59,352 bases of DNA, from the IMG/VR virus record IMGVR_UViG_3300037276_000070, positions 1 to 59,352 of that record, one strand, 5' to 3'. Every line of letters begins with the position of its first letter. The first letter of the stretch is position 1. The notes under the pieces were generated by a model. The model had not been told where the DNA came from and did no database searches. It saw nothing but the letters and a program-made list of their open reading frames with translations. Source of the DNA: a virus (lineage: Duplodnaviria; Caudoviricetes). Shown piece by piece: positions 6,411 through 48,730 of this stretch. A program made the position numbers and the translations under genes.

Positions 6411-6660
6411 TTGGGAACCTGGCGGCTATGCTACATTTTATGCGCCCTATCTTGCTCTTGAACAAAAGCCTGGTATGAGTTCTCGGTTTGAAGGAAGACC
6501 TTTAGAACAGCGTGAGCTAGGAGTCTTACAACGTGGGATATGTTCTTCTTCAACCAAAGAAGCTGGCACCACGCATAGACAAACTGCGCGTCCTAGACCA
6601 CCAGGAGTCTTGGAAATGGGCCGTGCAGCAAGCACCAAAAGGCCAGCCGGTAGCTCTTGA
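6403..6660 (+). CDS. Hypothetical protein, overlaps the polA start
   Basis: ATG coupled to the HNH stop; no motif seen. Confidence 0.35.
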   Translation: MSDWEPGGYATFYAPYLALEQKPGMSSRFEGRPLEQRELGVLQRGICSSSTKEAGTTHRQTARPRPPGVLEMGRAASTKRPAGSS

Positions 6661-8848
6661 TTTTGAATACCGAGGAGACTGGTCAGACGACCCAAGTGTG
6701 TCCTATCCCGTTGGTGTAGCATTAAGCGATACTCGGGGTAGTTGCTATATCCCTTTCGTAACCTCAGATGGCCAGCACGACCGCCCCAAGTTTCTCGCGT
6801 TCTTAGCGCTGCTCAAGGATGAGCAGACTCCTCTCCTTGCCCACAATGTTTATGCTGATGCAGGCTGGGCGGTCCGTGAGGGCTTCGAGTTGAACTGGCA
6901 TGCCTGCACCTACGCGACGGCCAAGCTGCTTGCCACCGAAGGCTGGAAGGGGCAGCGCTGGGGTCTCAAGGGACTACAGACCGAACTGCTGGGATGGGAG
7001 GAGACGAATGAGTCAGAGCTACACTCCTGGTTGGTTATGCATAGTTGCACTAAAGCGAAATCCAAGGTGGCTAAGCCGGGCAAGTATCTGGCTGGAGATG
7101 GCGCCTGGTACTCTCCAGATAAATCTGCAATGTGGCAAGCACCTGTGGGAATCTTGGGACATTACTCAGCCCTGGATGCTGATGCTTGCTGGCAGCTTTG
7201 GACGCATGTGCTCTCGCCAGTGCTCACGGATTGGTCCCACTTCCTGGGCGTCAGGCAGTATTGGGCCGATTACCCTAGTTACATACGGCTTCTTATCGGA
7301 CAACGCCTTCGAGGCATCCAACTCAACTTAGGAGCACTTCATGCCTACACTGTACAACTCGAAGAACGTATCGCTGTGGCGACGGCTGCTCTTCTGGCCG
7401 ATGGCTCGGTTCGCGGTGCTGCTATTGCGTGGTGCCAGGCACGTGCTGCCGAGTCCCTCAGCGAAGAGCCTCCTCGTCATACGGCTGCCGAACTGGGAGC
7501 TTACGCTAAAAGACAGGCGGCCTATCAGGCCAGACTCAGTCGCTGGACTGCAGAATGTGCTAAAGCAGAGGCAAGAGCAGCTGTCGGCGGAGGAGCAGAT
7601 GGACCTACAGGACGCCGAGCTGCTGCGCGCACTGTCCGGCCAGACCCGCCGCGAGGACTTGAACTAGGCCCCAAACTGAGCGGCAGATGGAAGCAGTGGG
7701 AGGCCAAGAAGGCCAGACTGGCTGAAGCCGTCGAGAAGCTGGAGGCGTTCAACCTGGACTCACCTGCCCAGCTGGGCTGGCTGCTCTATGAGGCGCTCCG
7801 GCTACCGGTCCAATACTCGCACAAGACGGGCAAGCCGAGCACCGACAAGGCAGCCCTCAAGGCGCTTGGGCCACTGGGCCGCCAGCTCCTAGCTAGGACC
7901 AAGCTGGTCAAGCTGCTCCAGTTCTGCAAACAGATGCAGACCCTACAGCGGGACGGCATCCTCCGGCCCGGCTTCCGCACCCCTGGGACGCTAACTGGTC
8001 GCCTGGGAGGCAGCAAGCCTAACATCCAGCAGATGCCCAAGGACCCCGAGTTCTTGCGGGTGTTCGCAGCCCGACCCGGCTACACGCTGGTGGCCTGTGA
8101 CGTGTCCTCGCTGGAAAATAGAGTGCTTGCCGAGCTGTCCAAGGACCCCAGTCTAATGCAGCTCTACGGCCCGTCAGCGCGTGTCGGGAATGATTCGTAC
8201 CTGTTCAACGGGTCCAACATGCCTATCATCGGGCCAGTCATCCGGGCAGCCGGTTACGACCCGGACAACTGGACACCGGAAAGCATCGCTGCCGCCAAGA
8301 AGGCCTGTCCTAAGGAGCGTGCGATTGCCAAGCAGATTACCCTGGCGGCGAACTATGGGGCAGGGCCAAGACGCATCCACGAGTCCGTGGTAAGCGAGGG
8401 CGGCACAGCTACCCTGGAACAGGTGCAGACCATGCATGCCGGCTTCTGGACCCTCTACGCCGGCATCAAGGAGTATGAGGCCTGGCTGCGTTGGTGCTGG
8501 AACCGGAACGAGGGCTGGGTGCTGAACGGCATCGGTCGACCCATCGGTGTGGACGAGTCGAAGAGCAAGGACCTGGTCAACCGGGTCTGCCAGTCAACTG
8601 GACACGACTGCTTCATCCGCCTGCTGCTCATCACGGACCGCCTGCTCAAGGAGGCCGGGCTGGACGCACACCCCTGGATTGGTGACCTGCATGACGCGTG
8701 CTATTATGAGGTGAGGGATTCGGATGTTGCAGCGGCACTTGACATCCTAGAGACGAAAGCGTACAGTGTGCTGAATGCGGAGCTGCAAGGGCAGGTGCCA
8801 CTCAGCGGCGAGGCCCACACCGGGGCGCATTGGGGGGAACTCATCTGA
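6533..8848 (+). CDS. polA: Family A DNA polymerase with 3'-5' exonuclease domain
   Basis: ExoI LDFE, ExoII HNVYAD, ExoIII YSALDA; TLTGRL, PNIQQMP; motif A CDVSSLENR, B RAIAKQITLAANYGAG, C LHDA. Confidence 0.96.
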   Translation: MGYVLLQPKKLAPRIDKLRVLDHQESWKWAVQQAPKGQPVALDFEYRGDWSDDPSVSYPVGVALSDTRGSCYIPFVTSDGQHDRPKFLAFLALLKDEQTPLLAHNVYADAGWAVREGFELNWHACTYATAKLLATEGWKGQRWGLKGLQTELLGWEETNESELHSWLVMHSCTKAKSKVAKPGKYLAGDGAWYSPDKSAMWQAPVGILGHYSALDADACWQLWTHVLSPVLTDWSHFLGVRQYWADYPSYIRLLIGQRLRGIQLNLGALHAYTVQLEERIAVATAALLADGSVRGAAIAWCQARAAESLSEEPPRHTAAELGAYAKRQAAYQARLSRWTAECAKAEARAAVGGGADGPTGRRAAARTVRPDPPRGLELGPKLSGRWKQWEAKKARLAEAVEKLEAFNLDSPAQLGWLLYEALRLPVQYSHKTGKPSTDKAALKALGPLGRQLLARTKLVKLLQFCKQMQTLQRDGILRPGFRTPGTLTGRLGGSKPNIQQMPKDPEFLRVFAARPGYTLVACDVSSLENRVLAELSKDPSLMQLYGPSARVGNDSYLFNGSNMPIIGPVIRAAGYDPDNWTPESIAAAKKACPKERAIAKQITLAANYGAGPRRIHESVVSEGGTATLEQVQTMHAGFWTLYAGIKEYEAWLRWCWNRNEGWVLNGIGRPIGVDESKSKDLVNRVCQSTGHDCFIRLLLITDRLLKEAGLDAHPWIGDLHDACYYEVRDSDVAAALDILETKAYSVLNAELQGQVPLSGEAHTGAHWGELI
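8739..8767 (+). promoter_or_regulatory. sigma70-type promoter inside the polA 3' end
   Basis: TTGACA-17-TACAGT, about 80 nt upstream of the next gene. Confidence 0.6.
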
Positions 8849-12623: not shown

Positions 12624-12766
12624 TGCAATTCGCAACTGACCAGACAGCAGGGCTCTTCATCTTACTAGTGTTGACAGTCATCCTCGGCTGCATGGTTTTT
12701 GGAGCCTGGATTTCGGACCACCTAGGCAACCGGTTCAGTAGCAACCAGGAGGACACAGATGAATGA
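12623..12766 (+). CDS. 47-aa single-TM protein (not in the ORF track)
   Basis: MQFATDQTAGLFILLVLTVILGCMVFGAWISDH...; GGAGG RBS; fills the gap between neighbours. Confidence 0.65.
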   Translation: MQFATDQTAGLFILLVLTVILGCMVFGAWISDHLGNRFSSNQEDTDE

Positions 12767-13328
12767 CACGATTCAAGGCACCCCGAGTCCATATGCGCCA
12801 CACCGCTTCAAGGACTGCATGGTAGACATCGAGTCGCTTGGCAACGGTAAGTCGTGCTGCATCGTCCAGATTGGTGCCTGCTACTTCGACCGGCTCACTG
12901 GCGAGATTGGTCCCACCTTCAAGCGCAACGTGGATGCAGCCTCCAACGGGACCATCGATGCAGCCACCGTCTACTGGTGGCTGGGTCAGATGCGTGAAGC
13001 TCAGGACTCCATCCTGGCCAGCCCACGTGAGCCTATCCAGGACGTACTGAATGCGTTCCGCGAATTCCTTGAGCCATGTACCGCCCTCTGGTCGCATGCC
13101 ACCTTCGACTTCGTGGCCATACAGGAAGCCTACAAGTCGCAGGGGGTCAGGCCCTTCTCCTACCGACTGGCTCGGGATATCAGGACGCTCATCGACCTGG
13201 CCAAGGTGAGTATGAGCGCGTTCCCCAGAGAGGGCACGCACCATGATGGACTGGATGATGCCAAGCATCAGGTCAAGTACTGTGTGGCTGCATTTCAGAA
13301 GTTGGCAAAGAAGGGAGGCTTGTTGTGA
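12759..13328 (+). CDS. DEDDh 3'-5' exonuclease (Rv2179c/exoVIII-like)
   Basis: MVDIESLG, IVQIGAC, TFD, RDIRT and HHDGLDDAKHQ motifs. Confidence 0.9.
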   Translation: MNDTIQGTPSPYAPHRFKDCMVDIESLGNGKSCCIVQIGACYFDRLTGEIGPTFKRNVDAASNGTIDAATVYWWLGQMREAQDSILASPREPIQDVLNAFREFLEPCTALWSHATFDFVAIQEAYKSQGVRPFSYRLARDIRTLIDLAKVSMSAFPREGTHHDGLDDAKHQVKYCVAAFQKLAKKGGLL

Positions 13329-13807
13329 CCCAAGTACCACAGGCAGCTTTGGACCTAGTCATGCACTACGAATCCTGGCGCGGCGATGCCTACCCTGACC
13401 CTGCCACTGGAGGGGCCCCCTGGACCATGGGCTTCGGCTTCACCCAGGGCGTGTTCAAGGGCGACTCCATCTCCTATGCCGACTCGGTCCGTGTTCTCGG
13501 TACCCTACTTGGCACTCTGGCTGACCAGATAACAGGAGCCTTGCAGGTCGAGGCTGACCCCAACCAGCTGTCTGCCTTCCTCTCGTTCGCATACAACGAG
13601 GGCTTCGGTGCGCTCAACTCCAGCACCCTGTTCCGCCTGTTCAATGCCGGTGACACAGCCGGAGCGGCTGCCGAGTTCGACAAGTGGGACAAGGCGGCCG
13701 GTAAGACGATGAAGGGGCTGCAGCGGCGCCGGAGGGCCGAGTCCCTGGTGTTCCAAGGAAGCTCGGTCCCAGATGCCATACAGGCGGCGGAGGGGGCATT
13801 CCCGTGA
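13325..13807 (+). CDS. GH24 phage lysozyme (endolysin)
   Basis: E...AYPD...WTMGFG, Q.SA.LSFAYN.G, SSTL and GL.RRR.AE motifs. Confidence 0.93.
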   Translation: MTQVPQAALDLVMHYESWRGDAYPDPATGGAPWTMGFGFTQGVFKGDSISYADSVRVLGTLLGTLADQITGALQVEADPNQLSAFLSFAYNEGFGALNSSTLFRLFNAGDTAGAAAEFDKWDKAAGKTMKGLQRRRRAESLVFQGSSVPDAIQAAEGAFP

Positions 13808-14070
13808 GCAGAGGTTGGAGCAAGAGGCCCTGGAAGCATGCCTTCAAGCGGTGGAGAGCGCCGCCTATCCCCCTGACTCCAGAGCAGCTTGCAGAAAGGG
13901 CTAGACAGGCATGGCGGTTGCACGCCTCCCCTCTCGACATAGCCCTGTATGACACCATGCAGTCGTTGAAGCGACAGATGTTCCTTGACCTCTATGGAGA
14001 CGGAACCAGGACAGAGGATAGGAACTTCCTAGGACTAGGAGCTTTGATACATGACGACAAGACTAAATGA
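13804..14070 (+). CDS. Small protein with a major-capsid-protein-like segment
   Basis: LKRQMFLDLYGDGT...FLGLGALIHD resembles this phage's own MCP segments MKRLLCQQFYGDGT and MTGLDALIRND. Confidence 0.6.
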   Translation: MSRGWSKRPWKHAFKRWRAPPIPLTPEQLAERARQAWRLHASPLDIALYDTMQSLKRQMFLDLYGDGTRTEDRNFLGLGALIHDDKTK

Positions 14071-14731
14071 TTCGGTCATCCACTGGTACCACGATGAGCA
14101 TGGCAACTTGGTCAACATGCTGGTGCCAATCACTGACGTGGAAGAACTCAAGAAGCTCATCAGCAAGGCGGAGTCTATCCTCCTGGATGCCACTGCAGGC
14201 AATGTGGCCAGCGAGCCTGGATTGGTGAGCTGGGCAGACTTTGCCCATTACACGTCTTCTCGGCCTCCACCCACGTACTATGTCCCTAAGCAGCCACATC
14301 CGCTCTACCCTGAGGAGTCTGAACGTGACCCCCACAAGGAAATCGCCCGGTACCGAGAAGCCGAGAGCCACGACATTGGACTCAGCCTCCGCACCTACGG
14401 CGAAAGGGGCGAAGCGCTCCATCCTCACATTCTTGCCGCCGCATTTGACCCCGCGACCTGGGCAAGTCCAGGCGCTGCTAGCCGTGGAGGCGAACTGGGA
14501 CAAAGCGGAGGTCTTCGTTATCAATGCTCCCGTTGCAGCAGGAAAATCGTTACTGGCGACCACTATCGCAAAGTGGGCAACTTCTGGCACTGCCTCTGCG
14601 ACTATGGACAAGTCATCAAAAGCTCTGATTGTACCACCGAACAACATGCTCCTCCAGCAGTACCTGGACTCCAACCCACGGATGGCCACCCTCTGGGCGA
14701 AGGACCACTACCAGTGCGTGTCAAGCCGTGA
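14051..14731 (+). CDS. Hypothetical protein with C-terminal zinc-finger-like motif, overlapping the helicase by ~400 nt
   Basis: AGGAG RBS; the N-terminal half fills a gap; CSRC...HCLCDY lies in the overlap. Confidence 0.6.
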   Translation: MTTRLNDSVIHWYHDEHGNLVNMLVPITDVEELKKLISKAESILLDATAGNVASEPGLVSWADFAHYTSSRPPPTYYVPKQPHPLYPEESERDPHKEIARYREAESHDIGLSLRTYGERGEALHPHILAAAFDPATWASPGAASRGGELGQSGGLRYQCSRCSRKIVTGDHYRKVGNFWHCLCDYGQVIKSSDCTTEQHAPPAVPGLQPTDGHPLGEGPLPVRVKP

Positions 14732-15896
14732 AGGTGCCACCTGCAAGGAGATTGGCTCCGCACTGGGAAAGCCCTGCTGCCGAGAATGCCCATATACAAA
14801 GGCTAACAGATTGGTGCGTGCAGTCCCTTGGGCGGCCTGCAACGCCTATACCTACCTGGCTCATGGACTCTACGCTGATACTGTCCTCTTCGATGAGGCT
14901 CATGGCCTTCTTGGAATGGTACGAGACCTGGCGGCAAAGAAGCTGTGGCGACGGGTTTACGGATACCCTGCGTCACTGCAGTCTTATCGAGACCTACTTA
15001 GATGGGTTGGGGAGGCGCTGGAGGAGCGCCCAGGTGACGCCAAGCTGGTCACCCTCAAGGCCGACCTGGAGTCTGGGGCTAATCGCTATCTCGTGGAGCG
15101 TGGCGAAGACACGTACTTCGGAAAGCCGGCCGAATGCCTCAAGCTGCTTCCAGTTGATACCAGCAAGCAGCCTCCTTTCCTCTGGCCAGGGCTGGGGGAA
15201 GGTGGCAAGGGCAAGGGCAAGGTTAGCCGAGTCATCCTACTTAGCGCAACAATTGGGCCAAAGGACCTGGAGCAGCTCGGACTCAACCGGAAGCGGGTTG
15301 CCTGGATTGAGACGCCAAGCCCTATTGACAAGTCCCGACGGCCCTGTTACATTGAGTCCGGCTTCGATGTTAGTGCCAGAGCTAGCCCGGAAGATGCGAT
15401 GGCGCTGGTCACCCGAATCGCCGAGATAGCGGCAGCACACCCAGGACAAAAGGGAGTCATTCATGCCACGTACCAGCAAGCCCGTACACTCATGGGCTAT
15501 CTACCGGCCGGAGTCCGAGAACGAGTCCTGTCCCATGACAACAGAAACAAAGCTGACATTTACAGACAGTTTATTGAATCTGGAAGTGAGTCAGGTAGAA
15601 TTCTCCTTGCATCCGGAATGTATGAAGGCCTTGACCTGGTCGGGGACTTGGCACGTTGGCAAGTCATCGCCAAAGTCCCGTGGCCGCACCTCGGCGAGCC
15701 GGCCTGGAAGTGGCTCTCGGAAAGCGACCCGGAAAGGTACGGCTGGGAAGCGCTCAAGCTAGTGGTCCAGGCTTACGGCCGTGTGTGCCGAGGGCCGACA
15801 GACTTCGGGGAGACCTACATTCTGGACCGCTCCTTTAGTAGACTTGATTTAGGGCTAGCTCCGAGCTGGTTCAGGGAGGCTTGCATTTATGTCTAA
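14325..15896 (+). CDS. DinG/XPD-like SF2 helicase with Cys cluster
   Basis: RPGQ, APVAAGKS, C..C..CCRECPY, FDEAH, LSAT, EGLD, KVPWP, QAYGRVCR and ILD motifs; GTG start after GAGGAG. Confidence 0.92.
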   Translation: MTPTRKSPGTEKPRATTLDSASAPTAKGAKRSILTFLPPHLTPRPGQVQALLAVEANWDKAEVFVINAPVAAGKSLLATTIAKWATSGTASATMDKSSKALIVPPNNMLLQQYLDSNPRMATLWAKDHYQCVSSREGATCKEIGSALGKPCCRECPYTKANRLVRAVPWAACNAYTYLAHGLYADTVLFDEAHGLLGMVRDLAAKKLWRRVYGYPASLQSYRDLLRWVGEALEERPGDAKLVTLKADLESGANRYLVERGEDTYFGKPAECLKLLPVDTSKQPPFLWPGLGEGGKGKGKVSRVILLSATIGPKDLEQLGLNRKRVAWIETPSPIDKSRRPCYIESGFDVSARASPEDAMALVTRIAEIAAAHPGQKGVIHATYQQARTLMGYLPAGVRERVLSHDNRNKADIYRQFIESGSESGRILLASGMYEGLDLVGDLARWQVIAKVPWPHLGEPAWKWLSESDPERYGWEALKLVVQAYGRVCRGPTDFGETYILDRSFSRLDLGLAPSWFREACIYV

Positions 15897-46176: not shown

Positions 46177-47547
46177 TCAGCTGAGCGTAAAGTTCTGTAC
46201 CTTGATGGTCGCAGCCGGGTGCAGGTTGAGCAATTGGCCCATTCCGCTCAGGTACGAGACCATGAGACGCTGGTGGTAGCCGCTCGTGCCTGGCGCGAAC
46301 ATGAACACATCCCCGTTTTCCGCACGAGCCGGCTTAATGTCGGTTCCACGGAATTGGAGGACCTTCTGGCCTTCCGTCTTACCTTCCGGCAAGATGTACG
46401 CCTTGAAGTGAGGACAGAACTCAGAGCCCTTGATTTCGATTGAGTCGTCTTGGTGGACGTACACAAACTTGTTCAAGCCTCTCTTGTTGTCTTCGATGCT
46501 CATGAAGCGGCGGTCCGTTTCGCGAGAGTCGATGAACGTGCTCCGGGCTTCCCGGTTGCAGAGCATCATCGGCCACTTGTAGCGACCTTCGCCAACAGCG
46601 TTCTTCACTTGGTTCATGGCTTGTTCAATGCTGTTGACGTCCAAGATGGCCGCCGCGTTGTCGTAGACAGTACCAGAAACAGCGCCTTGCTGGCTGATGC
46701 CATAGACGGTGCTGCCATCGTTACGGATGAGGGCGTCGAGGCCCGTCATCGCTTCCGTCGCCGACCCATAGTCCGCGATGGCCGTAAGGTTAGCAACAGT
46801 GGGCTGACCATACTTAACCCATTGTTCACCGGCAGCCGGCGTGTATGCCGTGACGGTTAGAATGGCGTTGGTGCTGGATTCAGCTTGGAGGGTGACCGTG
46901 TTGACGGTGCTGACCGGGTTGCGGGCAACCACGCGCCAATGGTCGAAGGTACCAGAAGCAACCGTAGGAGCTGCACCAGCAGCACCAGCAGCCGTCCAGG
47001 CCGAGACCGCTTCACCGAACTGGAATGAACCAGCGAAGCCTTGGTCCGTAGCGCCTTCGCGCATCGTGACGACAGCCTGTCCGCCAGTTACAGTAGCCGA
47101 GCTCGTACGACCGAGAACGCCAGTACCGTCACCATAGAACTGTTGGCAGAGAAGGCGCTTCATCGCCGTGGTCTTCGAGTCAACTTCCATGGCCAATGCC
47201 GAGGCATCATACTTGGACTTCGACTCAAGGATGCGACGATACAAGTTGTATTCGAGCTCAATCGTGGCATCGAATTCCTTGTAGGTCAGCGTACCTTCTT
47301 GGATGGAGCTTTCCGAGCCAGCAGGGAACTGGCTGCGGATACCAGGGTTCCGGTTCTGAACCGCCGAAGGGCCAAGGCTGGTTTGGAGCAGGAAGCGGGC
47401 TTCCCGGCCGTCGACCGAGCCGACACGCATGCGCTCGACCATTTCCCACTCTGGGTAGGTGATGCTAATCTGCTTGTGCACGCCTTCGATGAACGCAATG
47501 GTAAGATAGTTACCAAGTGCCAACTGGTTAATGGATGAATACGTCAT
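46177..47547 (-). CDS. Major capsid protein
   Basis: 456 aa after the scaffold; FYGDGTG and TGLDAL motifs; optimised codons. Confidence 0.88.
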   Translation of the reverse strand: MTYSSINQLALGNYLTIAFIEGVHKQISITYPEWEMVERMRVGSVDGREARFLLQTSLGPSAVQNRNPGIRSQFPAGSESSIQEGTLTYKEFDATIELEYNLYRRILESKSKYDASALAMEVDSKTTAMKRLLCQQFYGDGTGVLGRTSSATVTGGQAVVTMREGATDQGFAGSFQFGEAVSAWTAAGAAGAAPTVASGTFDHWRVVARNPVSTVNTVTLQAESSTNAILTVTAYTPAAGEQWVKYGQPTVANLTAIADYGSATEAMTGLDALIRNDGSTVYGISQQGAVSGTVYDNAAAILDVNSIEQAMNQVKNAVGEGRYKWPMMLCNREARSTFIDSRETDRRFMSIEDNKRGLNKFVYVHQDDSIEIKGSEFCPHFKAYILPEGKTEGQKVLQFRGTDIKPARAENGDVFMFAPGTSGYHQRLMVSYLSGMGQLLNLHPAATIKVQNFTLS

Positions 47548-47590: not shown

Positions 47591-48730
47591 CTATTTACTG
47601 TTCCTAAGGATACTCATCAGACCGTCTGTGAGTCCCCCGATGCCGCCCTTGCGAATGCCGGCGGTCATCTGTGCTGTCATATCTGTTGCCGGCTGTAGAG
47701 CCCGGTTCGCTGCTGCTGCAACTCGTGTCTGAGCTGCGTCCTTTGTTTTGGCGATGGAGGCCCGTGCTTGGGCGCTCGCACTCTTGCCAATTGCTGCTTT
47801 GAATGAGGTGCTGACTCTGCGGAAGGTGGTATCTACCAGCTGGGCCGTTAGGGCCTGCTCATCCGGGAGAGCGATGAGTTCATCTAGCGCCTGCTGCCAT
47901 ACCGCTTTGTCGAAGGCAGCCTCTTGACCTGCATCGCCCAACGTACCAGCGAACCGATACTTGTTGAATACAGGGACCATTTGAGCTTCCAGGTTGGTAA
48001 GGTCTGCTTGTTCCTTAGCAGTTGCAGCCGCCTTTGCAGCCTCCTGCGCAGCCTTGTCACGCGTCTCAGAGTCCTTCCTGAGCTTGGCAATTTCGGCCTC
48101 CTGGTCCATCAGTTTGCGCTCAGCTTCAGTAGCCGTCTTGTAGCGCGCATCCCGCTGAATCTCGGTCTGAAGGAACTCTTTGTAGTGCCCCTTCTTGCCG
48201 CCAAGAAGGTCAATTACGCCTTCCACACCTGATTGCTGGTAGGCCGTTTCAAGAGTCTTCCAGTTGCTCTCCAGGTCTGCTAGCTTCGGCTCAATGTCCT
48301 TAAGCTTCGCTGCATGCTGGTCACGCTCCGCCTGCATCTTCCGGAAGCCATAAGCTTGTGGAAGAATGCGAGCTAGTGCCTCCTTGTCATTCAAGTCAAC
48401 AGACACTTTCCGACGTCCCTTGTCATCCGTTACTGAGAAGGAGAACGGGTTGGCTTCTGCTTTTGCAGAGGCGGCCTGTTCGGTCTCAGTAGCCTGAGCT
48501 GTGGGGGTGTCGCCTGGAACGTCTCCAAGACTTCCCAGGTCCGCTGGTTCTGCTTGCGCGTCACCGGCGAATTCGGACTCCGTCAGTTCCGTATGCTTTG
48601 GCGGCGGGTCCGTTAGGGACGAGCTGGCCTTGGCTGGAGCTGCGGTCGGCTTGGCGGTAGGGGTGAAGAGCGTGTCAAGCGCCTTCATTCCTGCCGACTC
48701 ACCACCAGATGAGATAACTTGCGTAGCCAT
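47591..48730 (-). CDS. Scaffolding protein
   Basis: Acidic/Pro-rich N-terminus then coiled coil; lies between portal and MCP. Confidence 0.8.
   Translation of the reverse strand: MATQVISSGGESAGMKALDTLFTPTAKPTAAPAKASSSLTDPPPKHTELTESEFAGDAQAEPADLGSLGDVPGDTPTAQATETEQAASAKAEANPFSFSVTDDKGRRKVSVDLNDKEALARILPQAYGFRKMQAERDQHAAKLKDIEPKLADLESNWKTLETAYQQSGVEGVIDLLGGKKGHYKEFLQTEIQRDARYKTATEAERKLMDQEAEIAKLRKDSETRDKAAQEAAKAAATAKEQADLTNLEAQMVPVFNKYRFAGTLGDAGQEAAFDKAVWQQALDELIALPDEQALTAQLVDTTFRRVSTSFKAAIGKSASAQARASIAKTKDAAQTRVAAAANRALQPATDMTAQMTAGIRKGGIGGLTDGLMSILRNSK

Follow-up and report, generated by a model that had tools for sequence, protein, structure and literature searches.

A small open reading frame in the replication arm of a peat phage carries a fragment homologous to the major capsid protein

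The DNA analysed here, referred to as the window, is 59,352 bp long and makes up a complete virus record that carries direct terminal repeats. An 88-residue open reading frame (the mini ORF) in its replication arm encodes a segment of about 40 residues that very probably shares ancestry with the spine-helix region of the phage's major capsid protein (MCP). The predicted product (the mini protein) is a fragment homologue and not an MCP. The mini ORF is somewhat better explained as a young chimeric open reading frame, formed from a captured MCP fragment as a by-product of recombination, than in any other way, and a functional role as a capsid mimic is the alternative given most weight below.

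The genome is divided into two arms, with replication-type genes on the + strand and the terminase, portal, and MCP genes on the − strand. The mini ORF lies in the replication arm on the + strand, about 32 kb from the MCP gene, which is encoded on the opposite strand (Table 1). A scaffold-like gene is located at 47591–48730. These positions bear out an earlier note on this DNA, which described a small early-arm protein far from the head genes. The lysozyme gene next to it is itself placed within the replication-gene operon, between the exonuclease and the helicase. Its surroundings are not those of the usual lysis cassette because no membrane-protein gene adjoins the lysozyme. The phage is known only from peat metagenomes; the stretch is present in 24 DNA runs, with no RNA run among the listed holders, and the identical sequence has been recovered from many of these peat metagenomes.

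Table 1. Features of the window discussed in the text, with positions counted from its first nucleotide.
Feature	Position	Strand	Remarks
DNA polymerase	6533–8848	+	+ strand arm
Rv2179c-like exonuclease	12759–13328	+	+ strand arm
Phage lysozyme	13325–13807	+	PF00959, E 5.4e-31; directly upstream of mini ORF
Shine-Dalgarno-like site	13789–13796	+	GGAGGGGG (GGAGG core), 7–10 nt 5' of the mini ORF GTG
Mini ORF	13804–14070	+	Open reading frame, 88 aa, GTG start, TGA stop
N-terminal leader of mini ORF	13804–13884	+	aa 1–27; basic, Trp/Pro-rich, pI 12.0
MCP-homologous segment of mini ORF	13888–14007	+	aa 29–68; counterpart of MCP helix alpha2, spine helix, and GDGT loop
Second motif of mini ORF	14023–14058	+	aa 74–85, GL.AL.I..D type; possible counterpart of MCP aa 266–277, weak support
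ORF226	14051–14731	+	226 aa, downstream of mini ORF
Helicase frame	14241–15896	+	+ strand arm
MCP	46177–47547	−	456 aa, HK97 fold (AF2 and Foldseek)
Second-motif counterpart in MCP	46717–46752	−	aa 266–277, with short helix 270–273
Inserted all-beta domain of MCP	46750–47121	−	aa 143–266; strands 144–245, pLDDT >90
Counterpart of mini aa 29–68 in MCP	47122–47244	−	aa 102–142; helix 100–108, spine helix 112–137, YGDGT loop

The homology is carried by profile comparisons. In a direct BLASTP comparison, the mini protein and the phage's own MCP share 10 identities in 28 residues (E 0.004). Collecting the MCP family with a cut-off of E 0.001 gave 170 proteins, of which the best 120 were listed, and 37 of its sequences make up the family alignment and profile termed A2. 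Against A2, hhalign places mini residues 29–70 on MCP residues 102–144 with a probability of 92% and E 6.6e-7, while hmmsearch places residues 29–68 on profile positions 103–142 (19.1 bits, E 2.2e-8 at Z=1). When the whole genome, translated in six frames, is searched with this profile, only the MCP and positions 13888–14007 (E 8.4e-5) match. An unbiased scan of 38,880 PHROG families gives phrog_9953, annotated as 'major head protein', as the top match for the mini ORF (E 2.3e-4), with mini residues 50–87 aligned to the contiguous profile positions 122–159 of 329. When the six frames of the genome are scanned with phrog_9953, the mini ORF alone is matched and the MCP is not. Used as a query on 19 related IMG/VR records, the mini ORF yields one match each in 15, all inside MCP genes (E 2e-6 to 7e-3), where mini residues 28–69 align at 36–45% identity. 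The models of the two proteins also agree in order, helix, turn, spine helix, and loop, with the corresponding helices of the mini protein predicted at residues 26–40 and 43–64.

The first of the two motifs for which the earlier note proposed a match to the phage's own MCP is thus found far beyond chance and over a longer stretch than was seen there, and comparison with MCP profiles, of the kind that the note called for, gives significant matches with both hhalign and phrog_9953. The note's positions in the MCP are correct for residues 267–277 (46717–46749), while residues 128–142 correspond to 47122–47166, 3 nt from the figure given.

The likeness to the MCP family profile extends over about 40 residues only, in the P-domain spine-helix region of the HK97 fold, where the helix order is shared. 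The mini protein, encoded in the replication arm and on the other strand, differs from an HK97-fold MCP in having no N-arm, E-loop, P-domain sheet, or A-domain. At 88 residues it falls short of a complete HK97 fold, in which these elements accompany the spine helix, and it therefore cannot form a capsomer.

The MCP of the phage is itself recognized by structure. Its AF2 model has a mean pLDDT of 80.6, and Foldseek retrieves HK97-fold capsid proteins (Pa223, SU10, and HK97), with 162 matches at E 0.001 or better. The Pfam Phage_capsid model matches nothing in the whole genome. The inserted beta domain of the MCP begins directly after the GDGT loop, so that the two motifs are 124 residues apart, in agreement with the insertion of about 120 residues noted earlier and now seen as an all-beta domain in the AF2 model. 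The motif anchors are 92–144 residues apart in all 110 family MCPs examined. The family is large, comprising 170 clusters, many of them on contigs of 56–62 kb. In one related record, the MCP match (G013:C1:48446–49831) contains one in-frame TAA.

The second motif resembles its MCP counterpart in a way that is suggestive only and not independently significant. Neither BLASTP nor hmmsearch reports a match for it when the mini ORF is compared with the MCP or A2. With position-specific scores, the site proposed in the earlier note, MCP residue 266, is the best of all MCP positions. The score at this site is reached by 7 of 5000 shuffles (p ~0.001), and the same score anywhere in the MCP by 1177 of 5000 (p 0.24). 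Smith–Waterman alignment with free gap extension pairs the C-terminal residues of the mini protein with other MCP sites, including a RETDRRF-like site. Since other short pairings score equally with free gaps, short motif matches of this kind arise by chance. The main support for the second motif is the contiguous phrog_9953 alignment, which runs to mini residue 87 and suggests the canonical order of MCPs that lack the inserted domain, where the GL motif comes soon after the loop. HK97 itself has this order. The earlier proposal of two MCP motifs, joined as in a capsid lacking the insertion, is thus upheld for the first motif by profile methods and is not upheld for the second when all MCP sites are considered. 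The joined arrangement fits the profile of an insertion-less MCP family, with the second motif remaining suggestive.

The start of the mini ORF has the features of a gene. Its GTG overlaps the stop codon of the lysozyme gene (GTGA), and the Shine-Dalgarno-like site precedes it at 7–10 nt, with GGAGG at 10 nt. Shine-Dalgarno cores of at least 5 nt precede 15 of 35 other gene starts in the genome, compared with 4.3% of all positions. At the other end, an AGGAG ribosome-binding site and the ATG of ORF226 (14051) lie within the 3' end of the mini ORF. Both start signals and gene packing are therefore as in a gene, and with a ribosome-binding site and overlaps on both sides the mini ORF is probably translated together with its neighbours. 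Judged by these signals, its translation is plausible. No promoter-like site, terminator-like site, or Rfam match was found inside the mini ORF.

The coding signal is weaker. The stop-to-stop frame of 121 codons has a probability of about 0.01 from base composition. The codon-usage score of the mini ORF is −0.021 per codon, compared with 0.306 ± 0.13 for in-frame windows of real genes and −0.455 ± 0.16 for off-frame windows. This falls in the lowest 0.7% of in-frame windows, yet the other five frames score clearly lower. The score is unevenly distributed, with +0.103 for the MCP-like part and −0.313 for the first 27 codons. This leader resembles nothing in the searches and has no coding-type codon usage. 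The mini ORF is gene-like, though its codon usage is atypical.

The mini protein has a predicted pI of 10.2 and a mass of 10.4 kDa. No transmembrane segment is present, the maximum 19-residue Kyte–Doolittle hydropathy being 0.08 against a threshold of about 1.6. A holin or spanin was considered because the gene follows a lysozyme, and was rejected since the protein is basic and without a transmembrane segment. The single-sequence AF2 model (pLDDT 69) shows three helices and a disordered tail. Foldseek with this model gives 4 matches, all at E of at least 5.4 and none at E 0.001 or better.

The mini ORF is, on the sequences searched, restricted to this phage species. Its own cluster is made up of three variants, found on 1, 21, and 19 contigs, that are nearly identical and show G79V as the single difference, and no other homologue was found in 5.8 billion clusters. 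A phmmer search of 1.84 billion representatives returned the mini ORF itself but no MCP match and no other real homologue. Two long repetitive proteins among its matches were read as spurious, their scores being summed over 16 and 4 repeat units. Searching 50,697 phage records with tblastn gave 3 records only, all at E of at least 7, and the same 50,697 deposited records contain no close relative of the phage. The mini ORF was found in none of 16 candidate stretches of IMG/VR, and it has no match in Pfam, a single unrelated match among PDB sequences (E 0.9), and only unnamed clusters in the ESM Atlas (best score 0.90). Contigs from 4 metagenome runs are identical to the genome and offer no sequence variants. 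All copies of the mini ORF that were found are near-identical.

Related phages were examined for comparable open reading frames. With the A2 profile, a second MCP-like match is absent from 58 of 59 related records (18 of 19 and 40 of 40), 13 of the 59 being at least 90% complete; these counts cover records other than the genomes of the closest relatives, which have 75–89% MCP identity and lie on 56–57 kb contigs among the matches listed. The exception is record G016, where a 53-residue ORF (L122:821–982, equivalent to G016:C1:17620–17781) is a different, isolated MCP fragment. Its first 28 residues copy the MCP N-arm, with 54% identity to the MCP of the same phage (E 9e-8) and an hhalign E of 1.4e-7 against the MCP family. 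DNA similarity was found neither upstream of this ORF nor inside it, and the ORF is absent from close relatives of the G016 phage. A mini ORF in a single phage and an isolated fragment in G016 indicate that capsid-fragment ORFs arise sporadically in the family and do not form a conserved gene class.

The neighbourhood of the mini ORF is likewise not conserved. A helicase match came from 16 of the 19 relative records, and the 15 helicase loci that were compared, each with 1.5 kb flanks, contain no lysozyme, exonuclease, mini ORF, or ORF226. Early regions of closer relatives were not found in IMG/VR with helicase or DNA polymerase queries, nor in assembled genome contigs with the helicase query.

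By sequence comparison, the fragment does not stem from recent copying of the phage's own MCP. In the 40-residue alignment it shares 12 identities with that protein, compared with a median of 16 and a maximum of 19 among 110 family MCPs; 12 or fewer identities are found in only 8 of the 110, a count that includes the phage's own MCP and its exact database copy (P0006). In likeness to the fragment, the phage's own MCP thus ranks low within the family, which corrects the earlier note. The last 15 of these 40 residues are identical to some relatives at 13 positions. At the DNA level, the mini ORF resembles the phage's own MCP gene and the MCP genes of 80 relatives over about 20 nt only, at the codons of DLYGDGT. 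A recent donor was not found, with no sampled protein close enough to the mini ORF, and 9 candidate longer proteins for mini residues 41–88 contain them in no case at E up to 10. Either the donor lineage lies outside the sampling, or the fragment diverged while family-conserved residues were kept, which would suggest selection on the mini protein. A donor belonging to the family would have had to lose the inserted domain cleanly and in frame, given that the anchors lie apart in every family MCP examined, whereas for a related donor without that domain one event would be enough. The closer resemblance to relatives' MCPs than to the phage's own is more in keeping with a foreign origin, or with a role against competitors, than with a decoy for the phage's own capsid protein. 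That the mini ORF holds a captured capsid peptide, as first proposed from the sequence, is thus supported by the profile homology to the spine-helix region.

As the function of such a peptide, the earlier note suggested a decoy for capsid-sensing immunity or an inhibitor of competing phages. In this form the mini protein would be a functional capsid mimic, a free-standing spine-helix hairpin made early and competing with full-length MCP in trans. It might poison the capsid assembly of co-infecting relatives, with the phage's own MCP, diverged in the helix, being spared, or it might occupy a host immune sensor that reads the spine-helix part of the MCP. The mini ORF keeps family-conserved residues without DNA similarity, has a gene-like start, and as a member of the replication-gene arm would be made before the late MCP. 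That it resembles the MCPs of relatives more than the phage's own fits the poisoning of competitors and counts against the sensor decoy, which should resemble the phage's own MCP best. Some known systems share elements with such a mimic. The CapRelSJ46 complex, as modelled with AlphaFold, has the sensor touching the spine helix and beta-sheet of the P-domain of the MCP, and L114P and I115F, two escape mutations, map to the contacted region (PMC9712102). The mini protein carries that same spine helix. Gol/Lit and CapRelSJ46 are described as reading short MCP motifs (PMC13581612, PMC9712102), although these motifs are parts of a full MCP and not separate genes like the mini ORF. Tab and Tai are small virion-assembly blockers of prophages and satellites that stop competitors' assembly while protecting their carrier (PMC10884400, PMC11364771), but they act on tails, and their abstracts do not present them as fragments of the structural protein that they block. 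Ccm of the satellite SaPIbov5, described as homologous to the capsid protein, redirects the assembly of helper capsids (PMC8569155), and the mini protein could likewise act on capsid assembly in trans from outside the head module. Ccm, however, belongs to a satellite, whereas the mini protein is a predicted phage-encoded helical fragment, and as it matches MCP residues 103–142 only, it is not a near full-length, co-assembling homologue of the Ccm type. The literature searched, paper supplements aside, contains no phage-encoded decoy derived from an MCP.

Against a capsid mimic stand the occurrence of the mini ORF in this phage species only, with absence from 13 complete relatives and every database searched, its atypical codon usage, and the lack of a known host or sensor for the phage. 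The idea that change has been accelerated in the spine helix of the phage's own MCP was rejected, since the densest window holds 3 of 22 derived changes (permutation p 0.53). The complex prediction for MCP and mini protein, with a score of 0.00, is evidence neither way. A mimic is thus rather unlikely, though it deserves consideration. Very doubtful is a chance resemblance, in which an unrelated basic helical protein or a non-coding spacer carries a GDGT-type motif after an amphipathic helix. The modest pairwise BLASTP value, the failure of Phage_capsid to match, the second motif's lack of significance over all positions, and the whole-database phmmer search without an MCP match would all allow it. 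Three profile tests nevertheless agree on the same 40 residues, a head-protein family ranks first in the unbiased PHROG scan, the matches in 15 of 19 related records always fall inside the MCP gene, and the helices are predicted with the same boundaries as in the MCP. Hardly credible at all is a capsid-targeted internal protein, whose hairpin would dock to the scaffold or procapsid interior and whose basic leader would bind DNA, so that the protein is packaged and perhaps injected. The pI of 12 of the first 27 residues next to an MCP-like remainder, and the G016 ORF that begins with an MCP N-arm copy, are in keeping with it; the location outside the head genes, the lack of known homologues, and the lack of any supporting computation speak against it.

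The somewhat favoured reading, a young chimeric ORF and recombination by-product, would have proceeded as follows. About 120–170 nt of an HK97-fold MCP gene would have been inserted between the lysozyme gene and the genes on the helicase side, likely by illegitimate recombination. This piece would encode helix alpha2, the spine helix, and the GDGT loop, and perhaps also the conserved motif that follows. The donor would be an MCP related to those of the phage family but not the phage's own, and probably one without the inserted beta domain. The fragment would have come to lie in frame behind a new basic leader of 27 residues, and the ORF, probably co-translated with its neighbours, would yield a 10-kDa two-helix protein. 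The mini ORF would then be a by-product of evolution or material for it, not something that evolved as a decoy, and would have no dedicated capsid-related role. The homology, the weak coding signal, the sporadic occurrence, the foreign or old origin, and the gene-like start and packing count for this reading; the open frame of 121 codons, the best score of six frames, the positive codon score of the MCP-like part, the lack of a recent donor among sampled proteins, and the domain loss needed in a donor from the family count against it. Partial-gene relics occur in mosaic phage genomes. Like them, the mini ORF holds a detached part of a larger gene, sits at a new junction, and is seen in one lineage only; in contrast to them, this part is in frame, comes with start signals of its own, and includes the MCP motif that is most conserved.

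Capsid proteins set off several bacterial immune systems, in some cases through short motifs. A natural spine-helix mini-protein would be a ready probe for capsid decoys and for interference with capsid assembly between related phages. Even as a relic, the mini ORF would illustrate cleanly how part of a structural gene can become a new small ORF in an early operon. Together with the G016 case, it shows that capsid-fragment events recur in an abundant peat phage family. If a mimic were true, the N-arm ORF of G016 would point to a wider habit of using capsid pieces as trans-acting tools.

The genes downstream of the mini ORF have some features of their own. ORF226 and the helicase frame overlap out of frame by about 400 nt, and codon scores favour the ORF226 frame over 14051–14380 and the helicase frame over 14381–14728. 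Alignments with relatives' helicases begin at residue 25–70 of the long helicase frame, and the helicase likely starts at the GTG at 14325, which has GAGGAG 7 nt 5' of it. In two relatives, the open frame that contains the helicase (G002:C1:41675–42952 and G014:C1:6574–7926) extends to 842 and 860 aa, respectively, indicating a long N-terminal extension that is absent from other relatives.
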